DNA of 64,000 nucleotides from an uncultured Gammaproteobacteria bacterium (GTDB lineage Bacteria; Pseudomonadota; Gammaproteobacteria; JAJDYQ01), in assembly GCA_942491945.1 (NCBI GenBank), contig CALODD010000037.1:67500-131499 (forward strand). The letters run 5' to 3'. Position 1 is the first letter of the stretch. Each line of letters begins with the position of its first letter. Of this stretch, positions 9,498 to 45,455 are shown piece by piece. The position numbers and the translations under genes are program-made. Under the pieces are notes generated by a model. That model worked only from the letters and a program-made list of their open reading frames with translations. It made no database searches and was not told the origin of the DNA.

Positions 9498-10106
9498 TTG
9501 CTACGATCTACTATGTCAGCCAGCGACCTTAACCGTCTCCGCGAAGATATTCACTTCGAAACCACACTGTGTGAACAACCACTGAAATTCACCTCAACCT
9601 GGGGTATTTTTTCACCACGTGAGATCGATAGCGGCACCGACCTGTTGTTACGCTATCTCGAAGTTGATGCGGATAGCGATTGCCTGGACCTGGGCTGTGG
9701 CTATGGTCCTATCGGCATCACCATGGCCAGACTTGCGCCACAGGGTTCAACGCTAATGGTCGACAAGGACTTTATGGCCATTGAATATTCGAAAAAAAAT
9801 ATTGCGCAGAATCAGGTCAACAATGCACAGGCTCAGCTCAGCAACGGCTTTGATCATATTGATTCACAACGACGCTTTGATGTCATCGCTTCCAATATCC
9901 CGGCCAAAGTCGGTAAGGAACTGTTAACTCTTATATTGCACGATGGAAAACAGCGGCTCAATCCAGGGGGACGATTTTATGTTGTCACCGTGAATGGGCT
10001 ACGACAGTTTATGAAACGTTATATGACCGAGATCTTTGGTAACTATAAAAAGCTTAAACAGGGCAAGAATTATACCATCGCCTGCGCGACTCGAACTGAC
10101 GATTAA
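9498..10106 (+). CDS. Class I SAM-dependent methyltransferase (RsmC/RlmG-type small MTase domain)
   Basis: PREIDSGTDLLL, LDLGCGYGPIG (motif I) and NIPAKVG (NPPF-like motif IV). Confidence 0.65.
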   Translation: MLRSTMSASDLNRLREDIHFETTLCEQPLKFTSTWGIFSPREIDSGTDLLLRYLEVDADSDCLDLGCGYGPIGITMARLAPQGSTLMVDKDFMAIEYSKKNIAQNQVNNAQAQLSNGFDHIDSQRRFDVIASNIPAKVGKELLTLILHDGKQRLNPGGRFYVVTVNGLRQFMKRYMTEIFGNYKKLKQGKNYTIACATRTDD

Positions 10107-11461
10107 ACCAGACCTTCAGGTACATCTTCAGGGCTGATATCTTTTAAATGCCCAATAACCTGCGCACCATTATCAGGCCGATCCTCTGGTGACTTCGCCA
10201 ACAACACTTCGATAAGACCGTTCAATCCATCCCACTTATCAGTCAAAGCTGGGATCGGCTCACGTACATGCGCTGTAAATACCTGCAATGATGTCTTGCC
10301 TGTGAACGGGCGCTTACCTTCCAGCATTTCATACAGAATAACGCCCAGTGCGTACAGGTCGCAACGCTGATCAATCTTTCCGCCGACGGCCTGTTCAGGA
10401 CTAATGTAATACGGTGTACCGATGATCTGTCCTTCTTTCGTTAGATGCTTATCATGGCTATCAAAGGCCTTGGCAACACCAAAATCGACCAGCGCTAATG
10501 CGCCGTCTTCACGAAATAATATATTCGCTGGTTTTAAATCACGGTGCAGAATATTTAACTCATAAGCGGCCTGTAATCCTGCAGCGATTTGTGCCGCGTA
10601 CTGGATAGCTTCGGTCCGTGATACGCCTTCGCGAATTCTCGATTTTAAATCTCCACCTGGCAGGTATTCCATGACATTGTAAAAATATTCACCCTCAGCA
10701 ACATGCTCAAGAATTCGAACCACGTTCGGGTGATGAATTTCATTCAGTAATTCAAATTCCTGCGCAAATCGACGGGTTGAAACATCATCGATGAGCTGAT
10801 TATCCATTAGCTTTAGAGCATATAGCTGCTCGGATTGTCTGTGCCTGACTTTAAACACCGAAGCCGCACCTCCCATACCCAGATATTCCAGCACATCATA
10901 AGCACCCAGTCTGGCTTTACCTTCGGCGATCTCCAACATCGTGAACGGCCAGGTATTGTCCATCACCTCTTCGGGTAGCGTCAGCCATGCCCCAGAGAAC
11001 GGTGCATTAATTTGACTCATATCAGAAGGCTCGTCATCGACTTCCATGCTTTCTTTAGTGGCTTTCAATGTCGCAAGCCGCGCCAGTGATTCACGCAAGG
11101 TCTGGATATCCAGCATACTCATGGCCAGATAATCCAGCGCACCATGTCGCATCATCTCAGTGGATCGCTTCATGCTGTCTTTAAAGTCGATCACGATCAC
11201 TCGGCCAGCGATATCACTCTCGAGTTGCCCAAGAAAATCACTCGTAAACTCAAATTCCTTACCCGTCACCAGGAAAACAATATCGATAGAACTCAGGACT
11301 GAGGCGTTTAAATCTTGCAACGCCTGCCAGGAAAGACTGGTGGATGCAGAAAAAGCTTCGGTGAATAATGGTTCGAGCGCAGGCCGTAAACGAATATCAT
11401 CCAGCGCAATCAGCGCGGTATCAGCCTGCATGGCTGACATACGGTCATACTGCCCCGTCAC
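10103..11461 (-). CDS. Pseudo-receiver domain - Hanks-type Ser/Thr protein kinase
   Basis: Canonical HRDLKPANIL, DFGVAK and GTPYYISPE motifs. The N-terminal ~140 aa are REC-like but lack a clear acceptor Asp (IVFLVTGKEF). Confidence 0.8.
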   Translation of the reverse strand: MTGQYDRMSAMQADTALIALDDIRLRPALEPLFTEAFSASTSLSWQALQDLNASVLSSIDIVFLVTGKEFEFTSDFLGQLESDIAGRVIVIDFKDSMKRSTEMMRHGALDYLAMSMLDIQTLRESLARLATLKATKESMEVDDEPSDMSQINAPFSGAWLTLPEEVMDNTWPFTMLEIAEGKARLGAYDVLEYLGMGGAASVFKVRHRQSEQLYALKLMDNQLIDDVSTRRFAQEFELLNEIHHPNVVRILEHVAEGEYFYNVMEYLPGGDLKSRIREGVSRTEAIQYAAQIAAGLQAAYELNILHRDLKPANILFREDGALALVDFGVAKAFDSHDKHLTKEGQIIGTPYYISPEQAVGGKIDQRCDLYALGVILYEMLEGKRPFTGKTSLQVFTAHVREPIPALTDKWDGLNGLIEVLLAKSPEDRPDNGAQVIGHLKDISPEDVPEGLV

Positions 11462-11515: not shown

Positions 11516-13519
11516 CTAACTGGCTTTAAGCAGTTTCTTTTCAATGGTATCTGGAATTGCCTGAGACAGCGCCTGAATCAAATCCTGTCCTGTGGCATAG
11601 CGATCTTCGCGTTCCTTTGCCAGTAAACAAGTGACTACATCATTCAATGGATCCTGTGGACTGGACAGTTGAGGCACTTCACCATTGACGTGCAGCCGCA
11701 TGATCTCGAGCGAAGATTCACCTCGATAAGGACGAACACGTTCCAGCATTTCATACAGAATGACACCAAGGGCATACAAATCACTACGCCCATCTAGCTG
11801 ACTTCCCACGGCCTGCTCTGGGCTCACGTAATGCGGTGTTCCAACGACCTGTCCTGAAAACGTTAGAGTCGTTTGTCCTTCAGCCATCAGTTTAGCTATA
11901 CCAAAATCAAGAATCGCCAGTTCACCATTGTCTCGAAACATAATATTAGAGGGCTTTAAATCACGATGCAGAATGTTCTTTTGGTGAGCTGCGTGCAGCG
12001 CTGAAGCAATCTGAGCTGTAAACCGAACCACATCCTGTCGATCAATACCTTCTTTGATGCGATCTTTCAGATCACCACCCGGAAAATATTCCATGATTGA
12101 ATAAGCACTATTCTGATATTGAGCAAGGTCACGAATTTTAACGACATGTTCGTGATTGACTTCTTCAATCAACTGATAACCACGCAAGAAGCGTTTCTGC
12201 CCCTGCTGATCACTGGTATCCATATCAAACAACTTCATAGCAGACAGTTGTTGTGTATCCTGGTGCTTCACTTTAAATACTGATGCTGTGCCCCCTACTG
12301 CAACAAACTCAATCACATCATAATTATTCAGTGAAGCTTTACCCGCTTCAATATCTGCAGGCGTAAAGGGCCAGCGCTGCCCCATACTAAATTCCACAGC
12401 CTTACCGTGATGTTCAGGTAGCTCGGCCTGCTCCGCCACATTATCACGTTCAAGAATAGACATCAGACCGGTAGTAATAAACGACGCCTCCGACGGTCGA
12501 TCGTTTAGTTCAATTTCCGGTTCATAGGCGTCCATCTCACCGGTATAACCAGTCTCAACATATGGCTGTGATTTGCCTTCGCGCAATTTATTCGGCACAT
12601 CATGTTCATCGGTATTACGTTCTACGATATCGATTAAACCGGGTGTTATAAATGACGCTTCAGATGGTTCATCTATTTCATATTCATCGTCATCATTGGC
12701 GGCCAGACTGTCATTAATATCCGTGGCCTCGAGGCTTTCAGCACGATATACCCGGTCATCCGGTAACTCGCTGACGCCGTAGGCCTGATTGTTCAGGCTG
12801 TGATCTTCCAGCTCATTAGTAACGACAGGTTCAAGCGTGGTGGGATCCAGCCTTGGCAACACCTCGGTAGGCTCATCGGTCATGCCGTCATCTTCCGGCA
12901 GTGCATCGAACCTGATTGGTTCGGCAGTTTTCGTAGACTCGGTAATTGGTCGAACTTCAGGTAACAGATCGGTGGTGGGTTCTGGCTCTGAGGCAGGTTC
13001 TACAATATTTTCTTTCGCGGCTTCTACTGGCTCCACGGATATGGGCTGGGCTTCACTGACATTTTCATCTTGCTGAGCCTTGACTGGTTGAGGAAAACGT
13101 TCTTCACGAAGATTAGCCGCCATCAGCAAGGCACGTGTTAATCGTTGTGCGCTAACTTTGGTGATATCAATATAATCAGCGCCGCCTGCACGAACCATAT
13201 CACCGGCATCATCGACCGTTGCTGACCGATCCAGAAAAATGGCCATCGGCAACGAAACCTGAGTGATCAAATCGAAATACCAGCTACGTATTGCTGGCTT
13301 ATTTTCGGACATATCGACAATGACCAGATCGACTTCAGACCAGTCATAGTCGTGCTCTGGCAATCCCTGCTCGAATGGATCAATGGCCGAAAACTGCGGC
13401 TTATCTAACAGGCGCAATAACGCCACGGCCAAACCTCGGCGATATTTCACCACTGACCCAATCACAAGAATGCGTTTAAACCCGCAATCCGCAAGATTGT
13501 CGATCATTTCCACAGCCAT
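11516..13519 (-). CDS. Receiver-like domain - acidic repeat linker - Hanks-type Ser/Thr protein kinase
   Basis: HRDLKPSNIM, DFGIAK and GTPHYVSPE motifs. N-terminal REC-like domain (VDLVIVDMSE). An internal ~35-aa repeat (..PSEASFITPGLIDIVERN.. and ..PSEASFITTGLMSILERD..). Confidence 0.8.
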   Translation of the reverse strand: MAVEMIDNLADCGFKRILVIGSVVKYRRGLAVALLRLLDKPQFSAIDPFEQGLPEHDYDWSEVDLVIVDMSENKPAIRSWYFDLITQVSLPMAIFLDRSATVDDAGDMVRAGGADYIDITKVSAQRLTRALLMAANLREERFPQPVKAQQDENVSEAQPISVEPVEAAKENIVEPASEPEPTTDLLPEVRPITESTKTAEPIRFDALPEDDGMTDEPTEVLPRLDPTTLEPVVTNELEDHSLNNQAYGVSELPDDRVYRAESLEATDINDSLAANDDDEYEIDEPSEASFITPGLIDIVERNTDEHDVPNKLREGKSQPYVETGYTGEMDAYEPEIELNDRPSEASFITTGLMSILERDNVAEQAELPEHHGKAVEFSMGQRWPFTPADIEAGKASLNNYDVIEFVAVGGTASVFKVKHQDTQQLSAMKLFDMDTSDQQGQKRFLRGYQLIEEVNHEHVVKIRDLAQYQNSAYSIMEYFPGGDLKDRIKEGIDRQDVVRFTAQIASALHAAHQKNILHRDLKPSNIMFRDNGELAILDFGIAKLMAEGQTTLTFSGQVVGTPHYVSPEQAVGSQLDGRSDLYALGVILYEMLERVRPYRGESSLEIMRLHVNGEVPQLSSPQDPLNDVVTCLLAKEREDRYATGQDLIQALSQAIPDTIEKKLLKAS

Positions 13520-15537: not shown

Positions 15538-16458
15538 ATGGAACTCACGCTATGCATGATCGTCAAGGACGAAGAAGACAATATCGCTGACTGTCTGCGA
15601 CCGATACACGATCTGGTCAGTGATATTCAAATTATTGATACGGGATCGAGTGATCGTACGGTCGAAATCCTGCAGGGTGAGTTCAATATACACCCACGCA
15701 CTATCCTATTAAGAGACCGACATTGCTTTAGCTTTGGTGGTGCACGAACACTCTGTTTCCAACAGGCAAAAACAGACTGGATAATGCTGCTGGACGCCGA
15801 TGAAAGAATCGAACGAGGAGAATTAGAACAACTCATCGAATACCCGATGCCACAGAAAACTCATGGCTTGTTTGTGAGATGGGTCACACAGACTAAAAGC
15901 CACACGATTGAAGATTACAAACTTCCAATCTTCTCGAAAGATACCCGACACCGCGGTCGCATGCATGACACTGCTCAACCTGACTTCAGAAAGAAAGGTC
16001 GTATTGCAAAATGGTATAACGATTTAACTATCAGTCATTTTCCCAAAGAATCCAGCCGAGCCGACAAATCTAACTGGCGCTTAAAAGTCATGTCCTGCGG
16101 TTTACGCTATTCACCAAAATGGTATCGACATAGCTGGTTTCTCGGATACACCTATTACAAGGACAATGATTTAGACAATGCCCTGCAGCATCTACAACGT
16201 TGCGCTAATTCTAATTCTGAACGTTTTCCTGTTGAGCGTATAAATAGCCTGATGGTAATGACAGAAATTTATGCGCAGCAGAATGACATGATGTTAGCTA
16301 GTGCCTCTTTAAATAAGGCATTACAACTATATTTATCACATGAAAATGATTTTGAAGTAAGCATCAATTTTCGAATGAAACACTGGCTATACCTAACATC
16401 ACAATATCTAACTCATGGTGAGTTACACCATATCAAAGCCTATGAGTTTTCGTACTAA
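15538..16458 (+). CDS. Family 2 glycosyltransferase with C-terminal TPR-like helical region
   Basis: MIVKDEEDNI...DTGSSDRT...LDADE, typical GT2 DxD-type N-terminus. Confidence 0.6.
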   Translation: MELTLCMIVKDEEDNIADCLRPIHDLVSDIQIIDTGSSDRTVEILQGEFNIHPRTILLRDRHCFSFGGARTLCFQQAKTDWIMLLDADERIERGELEQLIEYPMPQKTHGLFVRWVTQTKSHTIEDYKLPIFSKDTRHRGRMHDTAQPDFRKKGRIAKWYNDLTISHFPKESSRADKSNWRLKVMSCGLRYSPKWYRHSWFLGYTYYKDNDLDNALQHLQRCANSNSERFPVERINSLMVMTEIYAQQNDMMLASASLNKALQLYLSHENDFEVSINFRMKHWLYLTSQYLTHGELHHIKAYEFSY

Positions 16459-17849
16459 GACATCAACTCCGACCTGAAATCCTCATACTTGCCTGCGGCG
16501 CTGCGCGGTACGTCAGAAACCTGATTTACCTTAATCGTCATTCCCGGCAAGTCCTGTTCAAACATTCTCTGGAGCTGCATCTGCTCAGTATTTGTCAGCT
16601 CTCGTGTACAAACAAGATCAGCACGAACAAGATCGTATTGCTGCTGCACAATTTGAAATTGTTTCACTGGTGCAATACCACGCAGCCGAGGTTCATTAAT
16701 CAAAGGCCAGAATGACGTACCATCTTCTCGGAGAAATATATTCCTGTATCGACCCATGATTTTGTTGAGTACTTTTAGACCACGTCCACAGGAACATGGT
16801 GTATGCCCAACTTCAGCCAGATCACCGATTTCATAACGTATTAATGGCATAGAAAAATTATGTAGATCTGTTACCACGACTTTACCCGTTTCGCCCGGTG
16901 CGCAAGGCTGGCCTTGCTCGTTCAATACTTCCATAAACACATCTTCTTCCATAATATGATAATGACTATGTTCCGGACACTGGAGTGCCAGATAGCCAAC
17001 TTCCCCACAACTATAGCCATCGACTAAATCCATACCAAGCACTTGCCTCGACAGTTCCCTCAAACCCTCAGGAATCTGTTCACTAAACGTCATGACCTGT
17101 TTTAACTTAGGTGCGTTATTATTTTCCTGCCAGTAATAAAGCAAGGTTTTTAGATTAGAGGGGTAGGTCAGTAAGTAATCAATAGATTCCGCTTTAATCC
17201 ACTCTGTCTGATGCGCGACATCGGCATAAATACTCAAGCTGGCAGCTTCGCCCGTCACGAATACTCGAGCTGCCGCTTCCCCCCAACGATCATGACTGTA
17301 CGCCGTCGGATGATCGCCATCATGAAAATCCGTATAGCGAATTGCACCAAATTTTGCATGCAAATCCCGCTCATGCCATAGATGACCTCGCAAGGTCATG
17401 GCTTGCCAGAACATATCGGTTAACTGGTTTTTTATAGAATAGACCGGCATCCCGGTTGAACCAGAGCTATGACTGAAAATTGATAGACCATGCTGGCGAG
17501 ATGGGAAAGCACTTAGCAGTTCTTTCTGATGGTGTTGTAGCTGTTCTCGAGTCAGAACAGGTAACTGCAACCAACGGTCCATTGATAGTGGAAAATTAAA
17601 ACTTAGATTCAGCTCTCGATAATGCTGCTGATAAAAAGGTACTGTATCTACTGCGTGTTCCAGCAGGTGTTCAAGCTGAAATAATTGCAACGTCTGTATT
17701 TCACTGGCTGACAACCATTGGCTTTTTTCGAGTTGATATTGCACCGAAGCCATCGCATTCGCCTGATCACTCTGCTGCACGGGCCAGACGATACCTGGGA
17801 CATGTAACTCATCACTTCGAAACGTATGATTCAAATCAGGCAACCGCAC
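16455..17849 (-). CDS. PaaK/CapK/F390-synthetase-like adenylate-forming enzyme (paralog 1)
   Basis: SSGSTGMPV P-loop and YSCGEVGY. The C-terminus GKYEDFRSEL is shared with the paralogs. Overlaps the next gene by 14 nt. Confidence 0.65.
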   Translation of the reverse strand: MRLPDLNHTFRSDELHVPGIVWPVQQSDQANAMASVQYQLEKSQWLSASEIQTLQLFQLEHLLEHAVDTVPFYQQHYRELNLSFNFPLSMDRWLQLPVLTREQLQHHQKELLSAFPSRQHGLSIFSHSSGSTGMPVYSIKNQLTDMFWQAMTLRGHLWHERDLHAKFGAIRYTDFHDGDHPTAYSHDRWGEAAARVFVTGEAASLSIYADVAHQTEWIKAESIDYLLTYPSNLKTLLYYWQENNNAPKLKQVMTFSEQIPEGLRELSRQVLGMDLVDGYSCGEVGYLALQCPEHSHYHIMEEDVFMEVLNEQGQPCAPGETGKVVVTDLHNFSMPLIRYEIGDLAEVGHTPCSCGRGLKVLNKIMGRYRNIFLREDGTSFWPLINEPRLRGIAPVKQFQIVQQQYDLVRADLVCTRELTNTEQMQLQRMFEQDLPGMTIKVNQVSDVPRSAAGKYEDFRSELMS

Positions 17850-19407
17850 TCGACTTTCTTATAAATTCAATCGGTACACCATCCATATACTCGGGAACAG
17901 GCTGCCCCATCAAATCGAGCAGTGTTGCAGTCAGATTGATCGCATGTGTTTCAGGCAGGCGCTGGCCTTGCGGAATGGACTGACCGGAAAACAGGGCAAA
18001 GCCATACGGACGATGTCCACCCGTTCTGAAGTAAGGCACTGGGCCAATCAGACCGGCATTTTCATCACGCACACTATCGAAAGGCTGTTGGTCATTCCAT
18101 TGCACGATTAAATCGGCATCTGGTAACCCAGATTGACCAAGCTGCTTGCTAGTTCTGGTTCGAACAATATTTTTAACAACTGACTGTCCTGAACGACCAT
18201 CCTTCAGCTGCGACACTTGTGAAGCAAGCTGATCACAATAGTCATCGTACTGTTCTGCTGAAATCATGCCATCGCGCTCACGCCCTTCAAGATTGATTCG
18301 TATGTACCCATCGGAATAACTCGGTAAGGCAAATGCCGACATCTGAGACCAGACCGTTCGATACCAGTTCGCTGGCATCCAGTCGAGCAGATCCTGACGA
18401 GCAATCTGCTCATCCGGTGATTCAAGTTTGTGGCCCGCCTTGTCAGACAATCGCCGCCACATCTCATATTTCCAGTGCAGCGGGAAGTTATAATCCAGCC
18501 CATCCTGATAAAATTTATCGGGGTCACCCAACGCCATTTCGCCGGGGAATGCCCAGCGATACATCGACTCAGGTAACAGCAACATGCTTGAGACATCCAT
18601 CACATTCGCCTGCATGCCATGAATAGAAAATACTGCGATGGTTGTCGAGTCATCGGCATCATCCATCAACTTACCGATCAGTTCATCACTGCGGATATAA
18701 ATATCCCTGACCCCCTGCTCACTCTCATCAGAATCATTCAATGGGTAATCCAGCCCCAGATGCCAGAGCGAGTGCCCTGCAGGGTGTGTTTCACCAATCG
18801 CACATAGAAACAAATCCCAGTCATCACTCTGGTAAGTTTCCATGAAGAGTTGTTCACGCATATCCAGCCCCTGCATGAACTCCTGCTTTAATACCGCCAG
18901 TTCCTCTCGGTCATAGCAGTTACGATGATCCCGCATCAAGGTCGGATGACAGCCAATCCGTTCACGAACATCGGCCAGCCAGTCGGCTGGTATCGACTCA
19001 CTGGGTGCCTGTGGTGAATGCGCACCCCAGCCAATCAATTGCTTTCCATTGACATCAACATGTGGACGACTATGCGGCATATCCATCACAGCCACTTTGG
19101 CTTTGTCACCCAGGGCATAAAACGGTGCGATATCTTTAAAATCATTCGCACCGGATTCAGTTGCTGTATATGTCTCAGGATCATAGGTCAGCATGCCCCA
19201 GTAACCACTGGTTTCCGGTAGACAACCAGTCAGAAAGTTAGTCCAGGGCGTTTCTGATTGGTAGATTTCCATATTACGCAAGGGTACGTAACTACCCTGC
19301 TCAGCTAATCGGGAAAGATTCGGCAGATAACCATCGGTCATCCAACGCTCAACTAACAGCGAATCTGCCGCATCAATCGCAATCGCTAGTAAACGGGATT
19401 TCCTCAT
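17836..19407 (-). CDS. Type I phosphodiesterase/nucleotide pyrophosphatase (alkaline-phosphatase superfamily) protein
   Basis: The N-terminus AIDAADSLLVERWMTDGYLPNLSRL and SETPWTNFLTG (putative Thr nucleophile) resemble the NPP/AlkP core. It is coupled by 4-nt and 14-nt overlaps to the flanking PaaK-like genes. Confidence 0.55.
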   Translation of the reverse strand: MRKSRLLAIAIDAADSLLVERWMTDGYLPNLSRLAEQGSYVPLRNMEIYQSETPWTNFLTGCLPETSGYWGMLTYDPETYTATESGANDFKDIAPFYALGDKAKVAVMDMPHSRPHVDVNGKQLIGWGAHSPQAPSESIPADWLADVRERIGCHPTLMRDHRNCYDREELAVLKQEFMQGLDMREQLFMETYQSDDWDLFLCAIGETHPAGHSLWHLGLDYPLNDSDESEQGVRDIYIRSDELIGKLMDDADDSTTIAVFSIHGMQANVMDVSSMLLLPESMYRWAFPGEMALGDPDKFYQDGLDYNFPLHWKYEMWRRLSDKAGHKLESPDEQIARQDLLDWMPANWYRTVWSQMSAFALPSYSDGYIRINLEGRERDGMISAEQYDDYCDQLASQVSQLKDGRSGQSVVKNIVRTRTSKQLGQSGLPDADLIVQWNDQQPFDSVRDENAGLIGPVPYFRTGGHRPYGFALFSGQSIPQGQRLPETHAINLTATLLDLMGQPVPEYMDGVPIEFIRKSSAVA

Positions 19408-20789
19408 AGCTCTGATTTGAAATCCTCGTATTTCCCCGTTGGGGATCGTTCAATTTCATCCGGATAGACAAAACGAAATTCAAACGCATGCCGTAATTCT
19501 TTCGTCAGCATGTCACTGATGGTTTGCTGCTCATTCGTATTCAGCTCTCGGTCAGCGACCAGACGTACCTCGATCACTTCTGATTCGATCTGAGCGAGTT
19601 GTAACTGCGTCACTGGCGCGATCTCCGTAATACGTCGCGTTGAAAAGACCGGCCAGTGCGAGGAACCATCTGGTAGCTTCAACATATTCCTGGTACGACC
19701 CAGAATACGTTTCAGGGTTAGCGACCCTCGACCACAGGCACAGGGCTCTCCCACCTCAGCGTAATCTCCAATTTCATAACGAATCAGAGGCATCGCAAAA
19801 TTATGCAATGGGGTGACGACGACTCGCCCTGTTTCTCTGCTCTTACAGGGCTGATATTCGTCATTTAAGACTTCGACAAGCATCGTTTCAGAACAAACGT
19901 GATAACTACCATGCTCAGGACATTGGAAAGCAATATTTCCAACTTCCATTGCGCTGTAAATATCGGCAATCGATGTATCAAAAACTTTCTCGCAATAAGC
20001 TCGGTCCTCAGCAGTTAAGACTTCGCCAATCGTACGAATTTGTTCAATCGATTGTAGTTCTGCATCAGATTGATCCATCAACTCCGCGAGCGCTCTCAGA
20101 TTCGAGGGATAAGTTAATAGATAATCAGGTTGCTCATCCAACAGCCAACGCAGCTGATCGGCAACATCACATTCTATGCTCAGCATGACGGTCATACCGC
20201 CGGAGTAGACTTCATCAATCGGGTGGCCCCAACCGGCAGAGCGTATGCCAGGCGGTGACCGGGCTTCCTCACTATCACCGGTATAGCGAATCGATGCGAG
20301 TTTTTTACGATGATTCCGTCCATGCCATTCATGTTCTCGTAAAGTCTGCGCGTACCACATAAATTGCTGCATATCGGTGACATAGACATTGACTGGCAAA
20401 CCTGTTGAACCGGATGAGCCTGTTTCAAGGATATCGCCATGCTCTTTCGGTATTGCCGTACTGGTCAAATCGGCTGAGTGCCGCTGTAAAGCCCAGCGTT
20501 GAAGTACGGGGATAGACTGCCATTCATCGATACTAATACCCGGCCGGGAGAGATTGATACGTTGTAATTCGGATAGACTTCGATAGTAGGATACCGTCCG
20601 AATCGCATGATCCAGTAAGGCATGAAGTTGTTTTAGCTGTTGTTGCTGAATTTCACCACAGCTAAGCCGTTCAGACTGGCTAAACTGGAACTGCATAGAT
20701 AGCAGGGAGGCGGCCGTTGGTGAGGGTAAAGCCGGCCACATAACACCCTGCAATGTGGAGTCAGCGACTACCGGTGGCATTTCCATCAT
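19404..20789 (-). CDS. PaaK/CapK/F390-synthetase-like adenylate-forming enzyme (paralog 2)
   Basis: SSGSTGLPV P-loop and C-terminal GKYEDFKSEL. Confidence 0.65.
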   Translation of the reverse strand: MMEMPPVVADSTLQGVMWPALPSPTAASLLSMQFQFSQSERLSCGEIQQQQLKQLHALLDHAIRTVSYYRSLSELQRINLSRPGISIDEWQSIPVLQRWALQRHSADLTSTAIPKEHGDILETGSSGSTGLPVNVYVTDMQQFMWYAQTLREHEWHGRNHRKKLASIRYTGDSEEARSPPGIRSAGWGHPIDEVYSGGMTVMLSIECDVADQLRWLLDEQPDYLLTYPSNLRALAELMDQSDAELQSIEQIRTIGEVLTAEDRAYCEKVFDTSIADIYSAMEVGNIAFQCPEHGSYHVCSETMLVEVLNDEYQPCKSRETGRVVVTPLHNFAMPLIRYEIGDYAEVGEPCACGRGSLTLKRILGRTRNMLKLPDGSSHWPVFSTRRITEIAPVTQLQLAQIESEVIEVRLVADRELNTNEQQTISDMLTKELRHAFEFRFVYPDEIERSPTGKYEDFKSEL

Positions 20790-20877
20790 TGCTAACCCAA
20801 ATAAAATCCGCCGGGAATTACCTGCTATTGGGAATCAAAGCATCATGAGTCCCGACGATTGCATAATTAGCGATCTA

Positions 20878-22164
20878 CTACCTTGCAAGCGGCCGCGAAG
20901 TCGCATGAAACGTATCTGCACGATCAGATTGTGTCAGGGCACCTCTCATCAAGGTCGCGCCGATAATATCAGCCCCCGTTGATCCAATAAATGAAGCATC
21001 GACGACACCACCATCTACCGAATTTCCAAAATTCTGCACAATCGTACCTGTCAACACAGATCCACTGAACGTACCGCCCGCATCAAAGTTAGGCCCAGTA
21101 CCACCTGTCCATGAGCCCGTCCAGGTTTTATTCGTAAAATTCACTGTCATCCCAATGTTTTTAGTGCCTTTATGAGAACGCCCAATAAAGTTGACCGCAC
21201 CCAGATTTGACATCCCGTTAATGGTGGCAGCAGCAGTCGGACGGCCGGCAACAAAACTACCGTTTAATCTACCAGCCCCCTCAGCACCGTTCGCACCTGG
21301 AACAACTCGGTCGATAAATAAGAAGTTTAGGCGACCTTCCAGACCATCCGGCTCACCGTGACCCGTCGTAAAAGTACTCGGCGCATTAAACCCGAACCAA
21401 CCGGGTGCTTCATTAAGCGCTCCACCATACGTAAAAAAGTTAGTTCCACCCATACCGCCACCAGCAGTTATTTGACCACCAGTAGCTACCCCACCGATTT
21501 TAATTGGGGCCGGAGCAGCAGCACCTTTCATCGATAAATGGATACTCTGTTGAGCATTATTTGTAATTTTCTGCCATGGAGCCACTGGAACCGCAGGTAC
21601 TGGATTTATTGCGTCAACCGTTAGCGCACCGCCGCCCAAATTCGAAAAATTTGTTATTGAATAACTCATTGTCGTTACCACGTCTTTAGTGGTATTCACT
21701 GGAACCGTCGTCGGATCAGCATCACTGAGCTTAATAGCCAATCGACCAATTCCACCGACTTGTGGTTTATCGAGAGCACTGTGATTTAAACCACCGGTTG
21801 TAATATCACTAATACGACCTTCAGCCGCTACAAAACCACGGAAGTCACCTTTTGCAAGACGTGTTGTACTGCCTGTATTTGTAGTTCCGGGTCTAAAGTT
21901 TTGCTTCGGGTTATTCGCAACGCCGCTCTGACCTCCGGGACCTTTGCCGTTATTATCACCATTACTGCCGTCATTCTTAACGACAACCAGGCGTCCAGCA
22001 GCCGTCCTGTGAACAACGACGGGCTTAGTACTCGTACCAGCGCCGGCTAACCACGGACCCCAGTCGGTTACATCATCTGCAATCGCTGCTGGTGCAGCTA
22101 CAGCCATTGCTATGGAACAACTTAGTGTTGTTTTACGTCCATTCATGTTTTTCATGTTTACCAT
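20878..22164 (-). CDS. Gly/Thr-rich secreted beta-rich protein. Candidate surface-exposed cargo of the adjacent Slam-like OMP.
   Basis: Signal peptide with an AIA-DD cleavage site. No canonical lipobox. The C-terminal region has G/T-rich, amphipathic beta-barrel-like repeats (GTFSGSVLTGTIVQNFG...). Confidence 0.4.
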   Translation of the reverse strand: MVNMKNMNGRKTTLSCSIAMAVAAPAAIADDVTDWGPWLAGAGTSTKPVVVHRTAAGRLVVVKNDGSNGDNNGKGPGGQSGVANNPKQNFRPGTTNTGSTTRLAKGDFRGFVAAEGRISDITTGGLNHSALDKPQVGGIGRLAIKLSDADPTTVPVNTTKDVVTTMSYSITNFSNLGGGALTVDAINPVPAVPVAPWQKITNNAQQSIHLSMKGAAAPAPIKIGGVATGGQITAGGGMGGTNFFTYGGALNEAPGWFGFNAPSTFTTGHGEPDGLEGRLNFLFIDRVVPGANGAEGAGRLNGSFVAGRPTAAATINGMSNLGAVNFIGRSHKGTKNIGMTVNFTNKTWTGSWTGGTGPNFDAGGTFSGSVLTGTIVQNFGNSVDGGVVDASFIGSTGADIIGATLMRGALTQSDRADTFHATSRPLAR

Positions 22165-22236
22165 CCTGCCATCCAGAGATGACTTTAATCCGTTTCTGAA
22201 TTAAATAATTCTAGTTCAGTTTGTAATAACTGCTGT

Positions 22237-23505
22237 TTAGTTCCACTGTTTACCGATACTAATACCGGCCTGCTGGCGATCGTAGGAATAACCAATGGTA
22301 TTGCTATTGTTGTCGGTATCACTGAAATAGCCGCTGACAATCCAGTTCTTCAGACGCCCACTTTGAAAAGTATGATTCACACCCAGTGAAGTAGAACGAT
22401 AGGATTCATCACGATCATCAACCGACAGCAATGCGCTTATAGTGTCTTTGTATTTGGTGTCTTTATCTGTATAACGCAGCGATACAGTACCGCCCTTCCA
22501 GGCGTTCCAGCTACCTCCAACAAAGTATTCTTCACCTCGACTAGAGTAAGCATCAACCTTGGCGCTTTCATCAAAACTGGTTACTCCAGCAGATAGCGTG
22601 ACTTTATCGTTGATCTGATAGGCAACAGCCGCACTGATGGCTTTATAGGTACTATCGCGTCCCAAATTATCGTTTGTCTGGTCAGTGTAGTCGCGATCCT
22701 GAACCTCTGCAGATAGACTAATTTCGGCTTTTTTGTATTGCCAGGACACACCTGGAGCAATCGAAACATAGTTCGCTAAATTGGTATTCCCGAGACGAAT
22801 ATGATCAGCCTGCAGACTGATGGAACCACGTAGTTCATTTGCGATAACAAATGCTGGGCCGGTACGCACTGTCAGCACATCAAGATCGAAATCATTTTCA
22901 GAATCGTAGTCATCGCGGAAAAAAGCTAAATCTGTCAGCCACATCCAGGCAACGTCTTTGCCGCGCAGTTTGGTCGTTTTGTCAAACAAGTAACGATGGG
23001 TAGCTGACGCGTTGTAATTCGTACCTTCGTCCGACTGAGGATTACTCGTCGCTGGCAATGTCACGCCACCAATTGTTCCAGCACCGGCACCGACATTGAC
23101 GTTGTCATCGCTAGTACGGCCGACGAAGATTGAACCTGACCATTTATGCTTCTTACTCTCGTCTTGCAGACGTTGCATGAATTCACGAATCGTGACTTTC
23201 ACACCCTCAGGTGTTTTTGGATCATTCAGAACTTCTTCTGCCATGCCGCGCGCTTCCTGGAAATTCAGGGTATAAAAACGAGTCAGAGCAAGTTCCAGAC
23301 GAGCACGCGCAAGTGACGGCTCCTTATTAACAATTTGCTGAAGCAGGCCTACCGCGTCATGATAGTTACCCTGCTCACGTTGCTGCAGTGCTTCATCGAA
23401 CGCTTTCTGGATATCTTCAGAGACTGCATACGCAGGCGCTGCGACAGCTAGCGATAACACTAAGGCCGTCGATAAAGAAACCAATTGTTGTTTTAGTGAG
23501 CGCAT
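22237..23505 (-). CDS. TPR-domain plus C-terminal beta-barrel outer-membrane protein (Slam/DUF560-like)
   Basis: Signal peptide (..AAPAYA). ~100-aa TPR-like helical domain. C-terminal region of alternating amphipathic beta strands ending in W-rich residues. GGGGGAGTAATG RBS/start at 23505. Confidence 0.45.
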   Translation of the reverse strand: MRSLKQQLVSLSTALVLSLAVAAPAYAVSEDIQKAFDEALQQREQGNYHDAVGLLQQIVNKEPSLARARLELALTRFYTLNFQEARGMAEEVLNDPKTPEGVKVTIREFMQRLQDESKKHKWSGSIFVGRTSDDNVNVGAGAGTIGGVTLPATSNPQSDEGTNYNASATHRYLFDKTTKLRGKDVAWMWLTDLAFFRDDYDSENDFDLDVLTVRTGPAFVIANELRGSISLQADHIRLGNTNLANYVSIAPGVSWQYKKAEISLSAEVQDRDYTDQTNDNLGRDSTYKAISAAVAYQINDKVTLSAGVTSFDESAKVDAYSSRGEEYFVGGSWNAWKGGTVSLRYTDKDTKYKDTISALLSVDDRDESYRSTSLGVNHTFQSGRLKNWIVSGYFSDTDNNSNTIGYSYDRQQAGISIGKQWN

Positions 23506-23687
23506 TACTCCCCCCAGAGATGATAAAAGTGCGCTAGTCGCATAATGTATTGCATACGGACTACCATTAAATAGATAGCAATAATTCACAATATGATAAA
23601 TGTACTACCAATCCAGATATAATAGGGTAATAGCCTACATATTTAAATAGAAGATTTCAAAAGTCTACACACTAATTAACCGGATAA

Positions 23688-24356
23688 ATGTTACTTAAAA
23701 TTAACCATCACAAGCTCAGAGAGCCGTTGTCACTTCGTCAGGGCTCCAGCGATGAACACAACTATCAACAGATTTTTGTCGACGATGAATACTGTATTGA
23801 GACGAAGATTGCCCCAAAAACCATAGTAGATCTTGGGGCGAATATCGGTTTGTCAGCGATCTGGTTTGCTTCGCACTACCCAGACAGCCTTATTATTGCA
23901 ATTGAACCAGAACGGTCGAATTACCAATTACTAGCGGAGAACGCCTCTGTCTACGAAAATATTCGGACACTGCGTGCCGCAGTCTGGTTTGAAGAGACTG
24001 AGCTTCATCTTACAGATCCGGGAAAGGGCCACTGGGGGTTTCAAACTCAAGAACAAGACTCCCCTAATGCATTCGATCGCATCAGCACCGTAACTGTCCG
24101 ATCAATTATGAAAAACCACAATATCAATCACATCGATATTCTAAAAATCGATATTGAAGGCGCTGAAGTCGAATTACTTTCAGATAATTCCCAATGGATC
24201 TCTCAGGTGAATATGATCATCATTGAACTGCATGATCGTTTTCGCGAGGGGTGCCAGGAAGCCCTGCATAACATTGCACACCATTTTGATCAGCAATGGC
24301 AACAGGGCGAAAATATCGTACTGGCGAAATCTTCGTTTATTAACAGGGCGGCCTAA
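23688..24356 (+). CDS. FkbM-family SAM-dependent methyltransferase
   Basis: VDLGANIGLSAIWFA, typical FkbM motif I. Confidence 0.65.
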   Translation: MLLKINHHKLREPLSLRQGSSDEHNYQQIFVDDEYCIETKIAPKTIVDLGANIGLSAIWFASHYPDSLIIAIEPERSNYQLLAENASVYENIRTLRAAVWFEETELHLTDPGKGHWGFQTQEQDSPNAFDRISTVTVRSIMKNHNINHIDILKIDIEGAEVELLSDNSQWISQVNMIIIELHDRFREGCQEALHNIAHHFDQQWQQGENIVLAKSSFINRAA

Positions 24357-25735
24357 TCCAGCTCACTCATGAAATCTTCGTATTTACCAGATGCTGACCT
24401 GGGAATATCATCGACGTAGCGATAGTTGATTTTGAATGGATAACCCAGGCTCTCTTGCAAGACGTCATCCATTTTTCGAGTCTGCTCATAATCCAGAGAT
24501 TCTGACAACACCAGCTGCAATTCCAGTGTATCCAATGTTTTCTGGATTAATCGGTACTGACGAATATCTGCTATCGCATTGAACCGTCCATCCTCCATCA
24601 TCGGCCAGAAATAAGCACCATCGGGGCGTCGTAACATATTTCGTGCACGACCATAGACGCGGTTCAGCACAGGCAGGGTTCGCCCGCAACTACAGGCATT
24701 ACCCAGTTCTGCGTAATCCCCCACTTCGTATCGAATTAAGGGCGTTGCGAAACTGTGCAAAGAGGTTATGACCACTCGGCCTGTTTGTCCTGGTAAACAA
24801 GGTTCATCATTCTCATCGAGAATTTCGATGTAATTGGCTTCGGCTAGCTGATGATAATGGTCCTGTTCGGGGCACTGCAAAGCCAAATGACCCGTCTCTT
24901 GTGCTGAATAAACATCTTGCAGTTCCGCGCCAAGCACTTCTTCGCACAGTTGCCGCAAACCATCAGGCAACTGTTCTGCCATGGTCACAACGACCTTTAT
25001 CGACAGTGATTCATCACGAGACTGCAGAATACGACAAATTGCCCGTAGGTTGCTCGGGTAGGTCAACAAGTATTGCGGTCGCTCTTTCAATAACCAGTCG
25101 ACCTGCTCGCCAACGTCATCAATCACGTTTTTAACAGCACACTCGCCACTCTTAAACGCCATTGCTGTCGCTGAACCCCAGTCATCCAGGATGTACTCAG
25201 TCGATGCCTCGTGCGTATTCCCCAGGAAACGGATAACTGCAACTTTGTCACCTACTTCCCGCTGATGCCAGATATCGTCACGCATACTCTGCGCCATCCA
25301 CATCAACTGATTAACTTCCGTTCGATACACCGTAATCGATTTACCCGTTGAGCCCGAGGTACTGACTGAACTAATACCGCCATGCTCTTCAGGAGTGCGG
25401 TTGCAGCTAATCTCTGATAGGTTCTGCTGCAACTCGGTACGCGTGAGTATCGGTAACCTGCACAGGAAATCCGCATCAATCTTCATCCCCTGCCGATAAT
25501 TAACCTGATCTAGTCGTTCTCGATACCAGAGACTGTGCTTCCAGGCATGTTCAAAGAGCAATCCCAGCTGACGAAACTGCAGCCACTGAATTTCCTCCAG
25601 CGGCATTCGCTCCGATTGCTGCAGCTGGCGTTGCATAGCGAGTAATGTCGCATTCTCTGATGTAGGGACACCGGGCCAGACGATATTGGGAATTGCGGTC
25701 TTCACTTGCATCGCACTAGTGTGCCGGAACGACAT
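24353..25735 (-). CDS. PaaK/CapK/F390-synthetase-like adenylate-forming enzyme (paralog 3)
   Basis: TSGSTGKSI P-loop and C-terminal GKYEDFMSEL. Confidence 0.65.
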   Translation of the reverse strand: MSFRHTSAMQVKTAIPNIVWPGVPTSENATLLAMQRQLQQSERMPLEEIQWLQFRQLGLLFEHAWKHSLWYRERLDQVNYRQGMKIDADFLCRLPILTRTELQQNLSEISCNRTPEEHGGISSVSTSGSTGKSITVYRTEVNQLMWMAQSMRDDIWHQREVGDKVAVIRFLGNTHEASTEYILDDWGSATAMAFKSGECAVKNVIDDVGEQVDWLLKERPQYLLTYPSNLRAICRILQSRDESLSIKVVVTMAEQLPDGLRQLCEEVLGAELQDVYSAQETGHLALQCPEQDHYHQLAEANYIEILDENDEPCLPGQTGRVVITSLHSFATPLIRYEVGDYAELGNACSCGRTLPVLNRVYGRARNMLRRPDGAYFWPMMEDGRFNAIADIRQYRLIQKTLDTLELQLVLSESLDYEQTRKMDDVLQESLGYPFKINYRYVDDIPRSASGKYEDFMSELD

Positions 25736-27683: not shown

Positions 27684-30197
27684 ATGGCAATTTTGGGATC
27701 ATTCAGTCTTGGCGGCGCGCTAGACAAAATACTGACCACAGGCGATATTGAAGCGCCTGCAGTTCAGTCCGCGCTGAAGAAACTGACTGATAACCCCAAG
27801 GCCGCGATGGAGAAAGTGCTCAATGTAATCGCTTCCGGTCCGAGACTGCATCACTCAACAGCGTATAAGCTGGTTAGCCGCTTACTGGACAACACAACGG
27901 TTGGCATGGTGATGCAGGCATTACCCTCCTTTCCCGATGACGCTCAGGCACAAATTGCTACAACTCTAAATACCAGCAATCAATATGACCCACATTTGTT
28001 ACTACCGTATTTGCGCACACCACTAAATACCTCACTCTGTAAAGATATGCTCACAGCGCATCGCCGAGATTTTAAAGCTGCAAAATTACTCTCCGCAGTC
28101 ATCAAAATTGACCCGGATTTACAGGACAATGTATTCGAACTCATTCATGCCAATGTCGATGAAACAGCGCTTGCTGAAGCGATCGCCCTGAGTCATAGCA
28201 AAGACGACAATATTCGAACACAGGTCACCAGCATCATCGCCGAGTTTGACAATCCGGCGGCCCAGGAAGCACTGATGACCCTGTTGAATGACAACAGTCA
28301 AAAGGTTCGTCTTAATGCCCTGCGAGGTCTTGTCAAAATACGTGCTGATCTAGCAACAGGTGATTTATTCCGTTTGATGTCAAAAGCAAAGAAAGAAGAA
28401 TCGCCTTTAGTAAAGGCATTAATTAGCTGCTCCACCGACCCTAAGCTACTAGAAAACTTCATCGAGGCACTATTCGCACCGAAAGGCAAAATGAAGCCAC
28501 TTGCCATCGCTGGCCTGTCTGAATTAATGAATAAAGACGTGCTATATGAAATTTTTTACGAATTGCATGATAAGCCAGAAGCCACGCAGGATTCTATGAT
28601 CCGTTCACTACAGGATGCAGGTGGCGAAAAGTTTCTGACGGCCGCCAATGAATTACTCAGTCACTACGACGAAGATATACGACGACTGGCGGCGAATGCA
28701 TTCCATGAACAGGATACCGGTGAAGAAACTGTGATTGAAGGTATGTTGAATGGCCTAGCCGTCGACATACCTAACAATTTAAAGCTGGAATACATTGAAA
28801 AACTCGGACACGCTGGTGTCACTAGCGCAGTCGATCCACTCATTAAAATTTTAGGCAGCGAAGACACCGAACTATTCGCGCCTTCGCTAGATGCACTGGC
28901 AAGTATTGGCGACCCAAAAGCACTGGCTGCGGCTTTTGAAGCTCTGAACGCCAAAGACATTGAAATCCAGACAAGTGCGCTGAAGTGTCTAAATGCCATT
29001 ACACCAGACAAGTTTGCTGAACGCTTACGTGACCAGTTATTAGAGCTATCCAACCATGTCCATGAAGATGTCATAGAGGAACTAGTCAATACGGTTGAAA
29101 CACTGACTGACAAGCACAACCTTCGCACCACAACGCATTACAAACGCACGATTGAGTCGCTTAAAAAATCCGATAACGATGAATTTGGATTTGCGCCCGA
29201 AGCTTCGTCAGCGAATAGCATGTTTGCTCCTGAAGAAGAATCGAGTTCGTCTTACTCCATGTTCGGTAAGGATGAAGCTGATAATGGCGTCTTTGGCGTG
29301 GTCGATGAAACCGATAGCGGATCTGGAGATGAATCAGCTGAGCCAGCAGAAGAACCTGTCTTTGCGGTCAATCTCGAAGAAGGGCTAGTACTGAATGACC
29401 GCTATGAGTTGATCCGAGAAATTGGCCGTGGTGGTTATGGTTCCGTCTGGCTAATAAAAGACAACTTCATCCAGGAAGAAATGGTGATGAAGTTTCTTCA
29501 TCAACAGCTGGTATCAGACGATATTGCTATTGAACGTTTTATTCGCGAGCTACGACTGGCACGAAAGATTACTCACAAGAACATTATTCGTTTGTTCGAC
29601 TATCTCGATCTAGGCAAGGTCACTGCGATCTCCATGGAATACTTCGAGGGCGCAGCACTCTCCAGCCTCATCAAAGACGGGCCGATAGAAATTAATGCGA
29701 TTGCCAAGATTGCATCCATCACCTGCGATGCCCTGCATTCGGCGCATGAAGCCGGCGTTATTCACCGCGATATGAAACCGGCAAACATTCTGGTCGACAC
29801 TAACCATGAAATAAAAATTGTCGACTTCGGCATTGCAGCGGCCAGCAAACATGCAGAATCCAGACTAACCCGTACCGGTACTCTCATTGGTACGCCGACC
29901 TATATTTCACCCGAGCAAATTCAGGGTAAAGCGGTTGATGCCAGAACGGACATCTATAGTCTGGGCATCATCATGTACGAAATGTTATCCGGCTCACCGC
30001 CATATCTGGCTGATGACCCGATGGCACTAATTTTCATGCATGTTGAAGGCAGTGCACGACGAATTGATGACGTCAATCCGCTGGTTCCAAAGGAATTCGC
30101 TGATATCGTTCATAAGTGCATATTGCCTGATCCTGATGAACGCTTTCAGAGCATGCTAGAACTACGCGAAGCAATTTCTCAAACAGGTTTAGCCTGA
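27684..30197 (+). CDS. HEAT/PBS-lyase-repeat protein fused to C-terminal Hanks-type Ser/Thr kinase
   Basis: N-terminal ~530 aa of HEAT-like repeats. Kinase motifs GRGGYGSVW, HRDMKPANIL, DFGIA and GTPTYISPE. Confidence 0.8.
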   Translation: MAILGSFSLGGALDKILTTGDIEAPAVQSALKKLTDNPKAAMEKVLNVIASGPRLHHSTAYKLVSRLLDNTTVGMVMQALPSFPDDAQAQIATTLNTSNQYDPHLLLPYLRTPLNTSLCKDMLTAHRRDFKAAKLLSAVIKIDPDLQDNVFELIHANVDETALAEAIALSHSKDDNIRTQVTSIIAEFDNPAAQEALMTLLNDNSQKVRLNALRGLVKIRADLATGDLFRLMSKAKKEESPLVKALISCSTDPKLLENFIEALFAPKGKMKPLAIAGLSELMNKDVLYEIFYELHDKPEATQDSMIRSLQDAGGEKFLTAANELLSHYDEDIRRLAANAFHEQDTGEETVIEGMLNGLAVDIPNNLKLEYIEKLGHAGVTSAVDPLIKILGSEDTELFAPSLDALASIGDPKALAAAFEALNAKDIEIQTSALKCLNAITPDKFAERLRDQLLELSNHVHEDVIEELVNTVETLTDKHNLRTTTHYKRTIESLKKSDNDEFGFAPEASSANSMFAPEEESSSSYSMFGKDEADNGVFGVVDETDSGSGDESAEPAEEPVFAVNLEEGLVLNDRYELIREIGRGGYGSVWLIKDNFIQEEMVMKFLHQQLVSDDIAIERFIRELRLARKITHKNIIRLFDYLDLGKVTAISMEYFEGAALSSLIKDGPIEINAIAKIASITCDALHSAHEAGVIHRDMKPANILVDTNHEIKIVDFGIAAASKHAESRLTRTGTLIGTPTYISPEQIQGKAVDARTDIYSLGIIMYEMLSGSPPYLADDPMALIFMHVEGSARRIDDVNPLVPKEFADIVHKCILPDPDERFQSMLELREAISQTGLA

Positions 30198-32878: not shown

Positions 32879-34156
32879 TTACGCGCTAGACACCCAGCTG
32901 GTTTTGACCTGATTTCGTCCTGCGTCTTTTGCTTCATACAGCGCACGATCCGCTTCTGTGATTAATATCGAGTAATCATCGGTTTTTGCTTCATCCACAA
33001 CCATTGAACCAATACTGACCGTGACATACTCAGCCGCTGCAGATGATTTATGTGGGATAGCCAGGGCTTCCACAGCCTGCCTGACTTTGTCCGCGACTTT
33101 CAATGCACATTCTCGTGAACAGTCGGCCAGTATCAGGGCAAATTCTTCACCGCCATATCGTGCAGCCGTATCGCCTGGACGTCTAGCACAGTCACTGAGA
33201 ACTTGAGCAATTGTTTTCAACACTTCATCACCGGCCTGATGCATATAAGTATCGTTATAGGCCTTAAAGTAATCGACATCGATGATCAGTAAAGCGATCG
33301 GTCGCTCATCGCGACGACAGCGCGCCCACTCTCGAGCAATTCCCGCATCGAAACTACGGCGATTAGCAATTAATGTCAGTGAGTCAATCGAAGAGAGATA
33401 CTCCAGTCTGCCGACTGCTTCCTCCAGCTCAGCCTTAACCTTCTGTAAATCTTTTTCAATAATCTTACGTTCGGATAGCTCGGAATCCAGTTCAGATTTA
33501 GCCACCTGCAACTCATCATTCAAACGTTTTTGCTCAAGACGTAATTCGATAGCTTCACGATAACTATGATTCAGGCGCCAGGCTGAAATAATGAGGTATG
33601 AACCATATACCACTGTCATGATGCCGATAATAATCCCCGACATTCCCCCTGAGACTAGCCAGACCGCAGCCATTGGCAACAGGATCGGAAAAATAAAACC
33701 GTAATAGGCATAGACCAAGGCTGCATTAGAGGTCAGTGCACCACCAGCCATACCTGTCATCATCAGTACACCCATGAGTGGATATAACTGATCATCTCCA
33801 AATGGCATGAAGGAAAATAAGCCCCAGGCCACGCCAAGCAAGCATGTCACCAGCACGTAATGACGGGCACTTACCCGTGCCTGTTGCGCATCAAATGAGG
33901 CAGAGTCTGCATCTCTCAGGACATAGAATCGCAGTGCATTAATGGCCATCACCGCTGCAAACCACCACCAAAGTAACGCAATATCAACATCGTGAGCAAA
34001 AAACCACACGGCACCAATCGATACCAGAAAATTAGAGGCAATTGCCAGCGGCAACTGCTGCCGCACCATACGAACCAGTTCGATTAACGCCGCTTCCGAC
34101 TTTGCAAAATGTAATCCAGCTGAAACCAACACCACCCCCCAGTTTACCTGTCGCAC
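32879..34156 (-). CDS. Membrane-anchored diguanylate cyclase (GGDEF domain)
   Basis: N-terminal multi-TM sensor region. RYGGEEF active site. Confidence 0.8.
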   Translation of the reverse strand: MRQVNWGVVLVSAGLHFAKSEAALIELVRMVRQQLPLAIASNFLVSIGAVWFFAHDVDIALLWWWFAAVMAINALRFYVLRDADSASFDAQQARVSARHYVLVTCLLGVAWGLFSFMPFGDDQLYPLMGVLMMTGMAGGALTSNAALVYAYYGFIFPILLPMAAVWLVSGGMSGIIIGIMTVVYGSYLIISAWRLNHSYREAIELRLEQKRLNDELQVAKSELDSELSERKIIEKDLQKVKAELEEAVGRLEYLSSIDSLTLIANRRSFDAGIAREWARCRRDERPIALLIIDVDYFKAYNDTYMHQAGDEVLKTIAQVLSDCARRPGDTAARYGGEEFALILADCSRECALKVADKVRQAVEALAIPHKSSAAAEYVTVSIGSMVVDEAKTDDYSILITEADRALYEAKDAGRNQVKTSWVSSA

Positions 34157-44126: not shown

Positions 44127-44433
44127 GGTTAATTCTCCAGCTAATATAAATTTACCGGCACGTTTTTAACAACATACTCGGCGTGTGTCTGCATTGTCAT
44201 AAATGATGGCATGACTATCCAAGCGTCTCAGATATGAGACATAAGAAATAACAGCCTTTATCGCACATGAGGAAAATGCAACCCATTGATTTACATGGAT
44301 TTATAATACGGCACCAGATGGCACTATAAATACATCGTTATAAACGACTGATTGTTAAACTTTGTAAACTATTGTCACATTCAAAAATCAGTGAACAACC
44401 GAAGATTTATATGAGTCATCAAGAGAAATATAA

Positions 44434-45440: not shown

Positions 45441-45455
45441 AAAGTAATTTGCCCT

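Follow-up and report, generated by a model that had tools for sequence, protein, structure and literature searches.

The type 11 secretion system (T11SS) is in practice delimited by two kinds of sequence model, the DUF560 model of Pfam for its outer-membrane protein (OMP) and models of the TbpB barrel for its cargo. Grossman et al. (2021) established that DUF560 proteins secrete 'soluble, nonlipidated proteins', and 97.8% of the cargo of T11SS subcluster 1B falls into a class that combines a signal peptidase I (SPI)-type signal peptide with a single TbpB barrel (PMC8406197). Subcluster 1B includes HrpB-HrpC of Xenorhabdus nematophila, the hemophilin Hpl of Haemophilus haemolyticus and HsmA-HphA of Acinetobacter baumannii, of which HphA was described by Bateman et al. 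(2021) as a Slam-dependent haemophore (PMC8560813). A census from 2025 lists 912 soluble against 96 lipidated cargo proteins of the haemophilin-like type, as well as 285 soluble proteins of the fHbp-like type (PMC12282271).

Here we describe a pair of adjacent genes in a 64,000-nucleotide stretch of DNA from an uncultured gammaproteobacterium (contig CALODD010000037.1; the whole stretch is referred to as the window), one encoding an OMP and the other a secreted, glycine-rich protein, hereafter the cargo. We consider, with a probability of about 0.8, that the two genes together encode a Slam-like module of type 11 secretion whose cargo is soluble and non-lipidated. A preliminary description of the window, made from its letters, had proposed a Slam-cargo pair and had judged that a non-lipidated Slam substrate would be unusual. 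This last expectation no longer holds: soluble SPI-type cargo of DUF560 proteins has been established since 2021 (PMC8406197, PMC8560813) and is the prevalent form among haemophilin-like cargo (PMC12282271), so that the lack of a lipobox is ordinary for a Slam substrate. Haem-scavenging proteins likewise provide earlier examples of a pore paired with a soluble cargo. The novelty lies in an unannotated T11SS subfamily that is invisible to sequence models, with an invariant W-G/S-x-W motif close to the mature N-terminus of its cargo; the gene family present in the window is undescribed.

Results

Arrangement of the gene pair

The OMP gene lies upstream of the cargo gene on the same strand, with an intergenic gap of 72 nucleotides (nt) (Table 1), and both open reading frames (ORFs) were found where the preliminary description had placed a TPR-plus-barrel OMP directly upstream of a secreted Gly-rich protein. 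No terminator-like site was found in the 72-nt gap, and promoter and terminator scans performed no better than on shuffled sequence. The ATG of the OMP gene at 23505 is preceded by a GGGGGAG Shine-Dalgarno sequence, and a longer, GTG-initiated ORF from 23589 was judged unlikely. For the cargo gene, the preliminary description had given 22164 to 20878; strand and location are borne out, but 22164 is the opening of the ORF, and the ATG at 22155 is the likelier start, with AGGA 8 nt upstream and a resulting protein length equal to that of the NCBI-derived protein P0001.

Table 1 Positions of the gene pair, its domains and downstream genes in the window, and of protease genes in sister loci
Feature	Sequence	Position	Strand	Remarks
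OMP gene, Slam-like/T11SS family	Window	22237..23505	minus	ORF, 422 aa
OMP signal peptide, aa 1-27	Window	23425..23505	minus	AYA/VS; hydropathy and A-x-A rule
OMP periplasmic TPR-type helical domain, aa 30-116	Window	23158..23418	minus	Five helices; AlphaFold2 and Pfam TPR_Slam (aa 34-86)
OMP 14-stranded beta-barrel, aa 120-421	Window	22243..23148	minus	14 strands in AlphaFold2 model
Cargo gene	Window	20878..22155	minus	425 aa from ATG at 22155; ORF extends to 22164
Cargo signal peptide, aa 1-26, SPI type	Window	22078..22155	minus	AIA/DD; single Cys13, no lipobox
Cargo mature N-terminus DDVTDWGPW, W-G/S-x-W motif	Window	22051..22077	minus	W32 and W35 invariant in alignments
Cargo TAAG, aa 51-54, LapG-type di-alanine consensus	Window	21994..22005	minus	Uncertain significance; low-confidence modelled hairpin turn
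Cargo C-terminal TbpB-like 8-stranded beta-barrel, aa 297-420 (~125 residues)	Window	20896..21267	minus	Presumed T11SS targeting domain; AlphaFold2 and Foldseek
PaaK/CapK-like adenylate-forming ligase gene, directly downstream of cargo	Window	19404..20789	minus	NCBIfam and PDB matches
AlkP-type phosphodiesterase gene	Window	17836-19407	minus	Within 16455..19407; overlapping stop/start codons
Second PaaK/CapK-like ligase gene	Window	16455-17849	minus	Overlapping stop/start codons
Peptidase_C93 gene	L001	1964-2635
Peptidase_C93 gene	L002	696-1340
Peptidase_C93 gene	L011	2232-2870
Peptidase_C93 gene	L032	1903-2550

A divergent OMP of the Slam superfamily

The OMP opens with a predicted signal peptide (MRSLKQQLVSLSTALVLSLAVAAPAYA, followed by VS) and contains no cysteine. 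AlphaFold2 (AF2) modelled it from a 99-sequence alignment with a predicted local distance difference test (pLDDT) score of 94.7 and a predicted TM-score (pTM) of 0.87, as five helices (residues 30-44, 48-61, 66-78, 82-93 and 100-116) followed by 14 strands; compared with the PDB, the model gave its best TM-scores to the 14-stranded OmpG (TMt 0.66-0.70).

An exhaustive HMMER search with the OMP returned 1048 homologues, 257 of them at E <= 1e-10 and 74 at E <= 1e-30, aligning end to end. Among the aligned homologues, TPR_Slam matched 84 of 99 and SlipAM 46 of 99, the latter with a best E value of 4.5e-22. The closest relatives are 38-43% identical to the window OMP, and three of the ten closest pass the SlipAM cut-off of 22 bits. 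P0010 (25.0 bits) and P0002 (43% identity; 23.2 bits) both score above this cut-off, and P0006, which is 38% identical to the window OMP over residues 5-419 (E = 8.5e-77), reaches 35.1 bits over model positions 1-288, that is, the whole model. These matches of the relatives, together with the confident AF2 model, place the protein where the preliminary description had put it, among TPR-plus-14-strand-barrel OMPs of the Slam/DUF560 (T11SS) superfamily, and we conclude that it is a divergent member missed by the Pfam model. NCBIfam models yielded no match to the OMP, nor did phmmer and profile searches of PDB sequences. A word-indexed search of 5.8 billion proteins did not retrieve the OMP, although the adjacent cargo was found there as P0001 (NCBI); the gene of the OMP may lack an annotation in the source record or have been called differently there. 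In the same word-indexed collection, a profile built from 12 OMP sequences returned six proteins.

The cargo is predicted to be non-lipidated and ends in a TbpB-like barrel

The cargo is rich in glycine (16%), alanine (11%), threonine (11%) and asparagine (8%). Signal-peptide types and cleavage sites were called by rule, from the A-x-A rule and hydropathy. By these rules, the cargo signal peptide consists of a basic n-region (GRK), the hydrophobic core LSCSIAMAVAAPAAIA and the sequence A-I-A before DD, and thus ends at the SPI site that the preliminary description had read there. Its absence of a lipobox, also part of that description, was equally borne out. The sole cysteine of the protein, Cys13, stands directly after the basic n-region at the start of the h-region, with no hydrophobic stretch ahead of it, and neither PROSITE PS51257 nor the classic pattern [LVI][ASTVI][GAS]C matches it. 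None of 12 cargo relatives has a canonical lipobox, and most of them lack a signal-peptide cysteine altogether. Judged from these sequences, the cargo family appears to be uniformly non-lipidated.

The C-terminal third of the cargo was modelled by AF2 with pLDDT values of 63-88 (residues 300-420), with eight consecutive strands between residues 320 and 420. A Foldseek comparison of the model with the PDB, in line with the preliminary proposal to set an AlphaFold model of the cargo against TbpB and fHbp, gave 47 matches at E <= 0.001, and 47 of 47 are known Slam/T11SS cargo barrels. These comprise TbpB (best E = 6.9e-6), the C-domain of NHBA (TMt 0.66), the C-terminal barrel of fHbp (TMt 0.67-0.70; root mean squared deviation 3.0 Å), HphA from three species and hemophilin (6om5), and the top 50 matches are all to one or other of these five proteins. 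The window cargo has no sequence match to PF01298 (TbpB_B_D), but this Pfam model matches two of its relatives, those of loci L011 (7.4e-6) and L032 (3.8e-5). Given fold matches that are all T11SS cargo and these two Pfam matches, the cargo carries the domain that defines T11SS cargo, a TbpB-like 8-stranded barrel. The alternative that the cargo is itself an integral 8-stranded OMP was rejected: its C-terminus has no terminal aromatic residue, and every one of the top fold matches listed is a soluble TbpB-like barrel. The N-terminal ~270 residues carry two conserved motifs, W-G/S-x-W and G-D-[WF]-x-G-[YF].

The pair is conserved across loci

In the word-indexed search of 5.8 billion proteins, the sole match to the cargo was the identical P0001, and relatives were therefore gathered by synteny. 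A cargo relative adjoins an OMP relative in L001, L002, L003/L004, L005, L006, L007, L009, L010, L011, L032 and L133; because a related secreted protein thus recurs beside the OMP in 11 other loci, the adjacency seen in the window is not due to chance. The related cargo gene lies downstream of the OMP relative and on the same strand in L003/L004, L005, L006, L007, L009, L011 and L133, is divergently oriented in L010, and is present in shorter or partial form in L001 and L002. The linkage was also recovered from the opposite direction: a degenerate DNA pattern for the cargo motif, run on metagenomes, fetched ~120 loci, of which at least two (L032 and L129) are true cargo loci, and in L032 the OMP gene is again found directly upstream of the cargo gene.

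The W-G/S-x-W motif is present in all 13 cargo-like neighbours of OMP relatives, 5-8 residues past the predicted cleavage site in most of them and further in for L011, L032 and L129. Beyond this motif, the cargo relatives share the SPI-type signal peptide and a recurring C-terminal pattern (Y-G-x-S ... V-x-F ... W-x-G-x-W ... F-x-A-x-G-T-I-S-G ... G-x-V ... F-x-G ... I-x-G ... D-x-F).

Proteins of the PEP-CTERM type were also seen in some of these loci: a PEP-CTERM-tailed protein follows a barrel-less W-G/S-x-W protein in L001 (4416-5456) and on the contig of P0006, and another PEP-CTERM protein is encoded nearby in L010 (3361-3930).

Proposed mechanism and alternative readings

In the mechanism that we propose, both proteins would be exported by Sec and cut by SPI, and the OMP would form its 14-stranded barrel in the outer membrane, with the short TPR domain facing the periplasm. 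By analogy with the characterized family, the C-terminal barrel of the cargo would act as the targeting domain; the OMP would recognize it and move the cargo across the outer membrane, where the cargo, having no lipid anchor, would be either released or held at the surface through protein contacts.

Several observations weigh against this assignment. The preliminary description had held that an OMP without a DUF560 match would count against a Slam system, and the window OMP does indeed give no match to PF04575 (SlipAM/DUF560) even at E <= 10; its match to TPR_Slam (E = 8.7e-7; residues 34-86), at 29.8 bits, stays under the cut-off of 35.2. The missing PF04575 match is nonetheless overridden, since the closest relatives pass the SlipAM cut-off, homologues match SlipAM and TPR_Slam, and the AF2 model is confident. 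No solved Slam structure is among the PDB matches listed for the OMP, so that its fold match is to generic barrels only. On the side of the cargo, Pfam and NCBIfam models and phmmer and profile searches of PDB sequences gave no match, the AF2 model, built on a 9-sequence alignment, has an overall pLDDT of 41.7 and is usable only in its C-terminal third, and an hhalign comparison of the cargo family with the fHbp barrel found the expected register at a non-significant E value of 0.23. As to linkage, no cargo gene was found near the OMP relatives of L132 and L134 in the DNA at hand, though protease and OMP are both present; and in L001 and on the P0006 contig the neighbour of the OMP is a barrel-less W-G/S-x-W protein of 117-121 residues, which does not fit the rule that a C-terminal barrel is the targeting domain.

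The surroundings of the pair raise a different possibility. Between cysS and thiS/thiG (15538-25735), it sits within a block of enzyme genes encoding a GT2 glycosyltransferase, an FkbM methyltransferase, an AlkP-type phosphodiesterase and three PaaK/CapK-like ligases, which are paralogues of one another (pairwise E about 1e-111 to 1e-114). The ligase gene directly downstream is probably in the same operon as the cargo gene. The AlkP-type phosphodiesterase and second ligase are linked to the pair by gene overlap only, and their overlapping stop and start codons suggest that one operon runs from the OMP gene through the cargo, ligase and phosphodiesterase genes to the second ligase gene. In L009 and L011, too, the gene immediately after the cargo gene encodes a ligase of this family. 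The OMP might accordingly be an exporter or porin for a glycan or small-molecule pathway of the flanking genes, resembling the TPR-plus-barrel polysaccharide exporters, with the Gly-rich protein as a periplasmic or surface accessory. We regard this as improbable, because the unit kept across loci is the OMP with its barrel-bearing partner whereas the other neighbours vary by locus, because the homologues of the OMP are SlipAM/TPR_Slam proteins, and because the partner bears a T11SS cargo barrel. This last feature bears also on the reading, in our view unlikely, that the downstream protein is not translocated and instead serves the OMP as partner or regulator, located in the periplasm or at the inner face of the outer membrane. 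Such a role would suit a protein with no lipid anchor, and the invariant W-G/S-x-W could serve as a periplasmic docking element; yet every solved structure matching the C-terminal domain at E <= 0.001 is a surface-exposed or secreted T11SS cargo. As for a classical Slam-dependent surface lipoprotein, acylated on the only cysteine (TLSC), its one point of support is that this residue falls within the first 16; the place of the cysteine behind the n-region, the failure of both lipobox patterns, the full h-region and A-x-A that come after it, and the lack of any such cysteine in most relatives rule this reading out for practical purposes. The interpretation as a T11SS module with a soluble cargo is therefore preferred.

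A LapG-type protease and its putative cleavage motif in sister loci

In L001, L002, L011 and L032, the OMP gene has a divergently oriented gene for a Peptidase_C93 protein (BTLCP, the LapG family) upstream of it (Table 1), and such a gene also adjoins the Slam-like OMP gene in L132 and L134. The cargo proteins of exactly the first four loci carry the sequence PAAG five residues past WGPW or WGSW. A BTLCP gene is thus present in 4 of 4 loci with PAAG, against 0 of 5 informative loci without it (the window, L003/L004, L005, L009 and L133; Fisher's exact p ~0.008, calculated by hand and not corrected for relatedness of the loci). Cleavage by LapG at PAAG has been validated experimentally for FrhA of V. 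cholerae (PMC6890996), and CdrA, an adhesin outside the type 1 secretion system (T1SS), is released from its OMP by LapG (PMC4694147). No link of LapG or BTLCP with DUF560 or the T11SS was found in the literature searched.

Because BTLCP gene and PAAG co-occur, and PAAG is a validated LapG site, these sequences suggest that the N-terminal peptide of the cargo is a retention element released by proteolysis. A tentative extension, which we think possible but doubtful and which rests mainly on the sister loci, is that the W-G/S-x-W peptide substitutes for a lipid anchor, holding the cargo at the OMP or the periplasmic face after barrel-led passage, and that in the sister branch the LapG-type protease, a periplasmic cysteine protease, cuts at PAAG and releases the cargo; this would amount to a LapA/CdrA-style switch placed on a T11SS. 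In L011 and L134 the protease gene has HD-GYP genes on its flanks, and these neighbours suggest possible control of such a switch by cyclic di-GMP (c-di-GMP). No BTLCP gene was found in the 64-kb window, and the window cargo has TAAG, 16 residues past WGPW, which could be a chance occurrence (~4% expectation from composition). Under a retain-and-cleave scheme, the window pair would be a protease-less form, or would be served in trans through this TAAG.

Other features of the window

Five genes for eukaryote-type Ser/Thr kinases are found in the 64 kb (3628-5133, 10103-11461, 11516-13519, 27684-30197 and 35806-36696), which is unusually dense; four were confirmed by Pfam, and the fifth, 27684-30197, was recognized by kinase motifs in its translation. 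Two genes, at 32879-34156 and 37600-38754, encode GGDEF proteins. The region 44000-50000, probably a mobile island, has a low GC content (0.37-0.42 compared with about 0.47) and contains genes for an AbiC-like abortive-infection protein (44613-45440), a phage-type integrase (46821-47813) and a DUF5677 protein (47810-48682). The N-terminal domain of a second integrase is encoded at 1816-2751.

Discussion

The gene pair escapes both kinds of model by which the T11SS is delimited, yet it has the right folds and a conserved linkage; the repertoire of T11SS OMPs and cargo is therefore wider than the model-based census, especially outside host-associated bacteria. The invariant N-terminal motif, together with the LapG-type protease of the sister loci and its matching motif, makes the recognition, retention and release of soluble T11SS cargo testable.

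Likeness to the LapG/BTLCP-controlled adhesins, that is, LapA with the T1SS protein LapE and CdrA with CdrB of the type 5b secretion system (T5bSS), is confined to the sister loci, in which Peptidase_C93 is encoded beside the OMP, PAAG lies near the retained terminus and HD-GYP genes are adjacent. Even there, the transporter is of another class, the removed piece would comprise only ~15-40 residues with no folded retention domain, and no LapD-like receptor was seen. The window differs from LapG systems further, having no BTLCP gene in its 64 kb.

The marine cluster 3 T11SS OMPs of Rhodobacteraceae/Roseobacteraceae (PMC12282271) resemble the window OMP in being divergent and not host-associated, and their cargo, too, is poorly detected by sequence models. 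By contrast, they match DUF560 and are found together with DUF1194, glyoxalase and ThyX, none of which neighbours the window pair, and their few predicted barrel cargos are lipoproteins with a signal peptidase II (SPII)-type signal peptide, unlike the window cargo.

With Slam1 and Slam2 of Neisseria, which handle TbpB, LbpB, fHbp, HpuA and NHBA, the window OMP shares its architecture, and the window cargo shares the barrel fold of their substrates, TbpB, fHbp and NHBA being among its best fold matches. The Neisseria cargos have an SPII signal peptide and a lipidated cysteine, neither of which is present in the window cargo, and the Neisseria systems act in host-associated nutrient piracy or immune evasion.

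The systems of subcluster 1B, too, are close counterparts. Unlike these, the window OMP falls below the Pfam SlipAM model, and the window cargo shows no sequence-level similarity to hemophilins or HphA and has an unrelated N-terminal domain that carries W-G/S-x-W. Also in contrast to subcluster 1B, no TonB-dependent receptor, TonB or haem-utilization family was reported among the scanned ORFs of the window (the flanks of the pair and most other large ORFs). What the window pair has in common with subcluster 1B is the central arrangement, a DUF560-type OMP with TPR domain and 14-strand barrel beside a non-lipidated Sec/SPI protein with one C-terminal TbpB-like barrel (PMC8406197, PMC8560813), and the structures of HphA and hemophilin themselves are among the fold matches of the window cargo.

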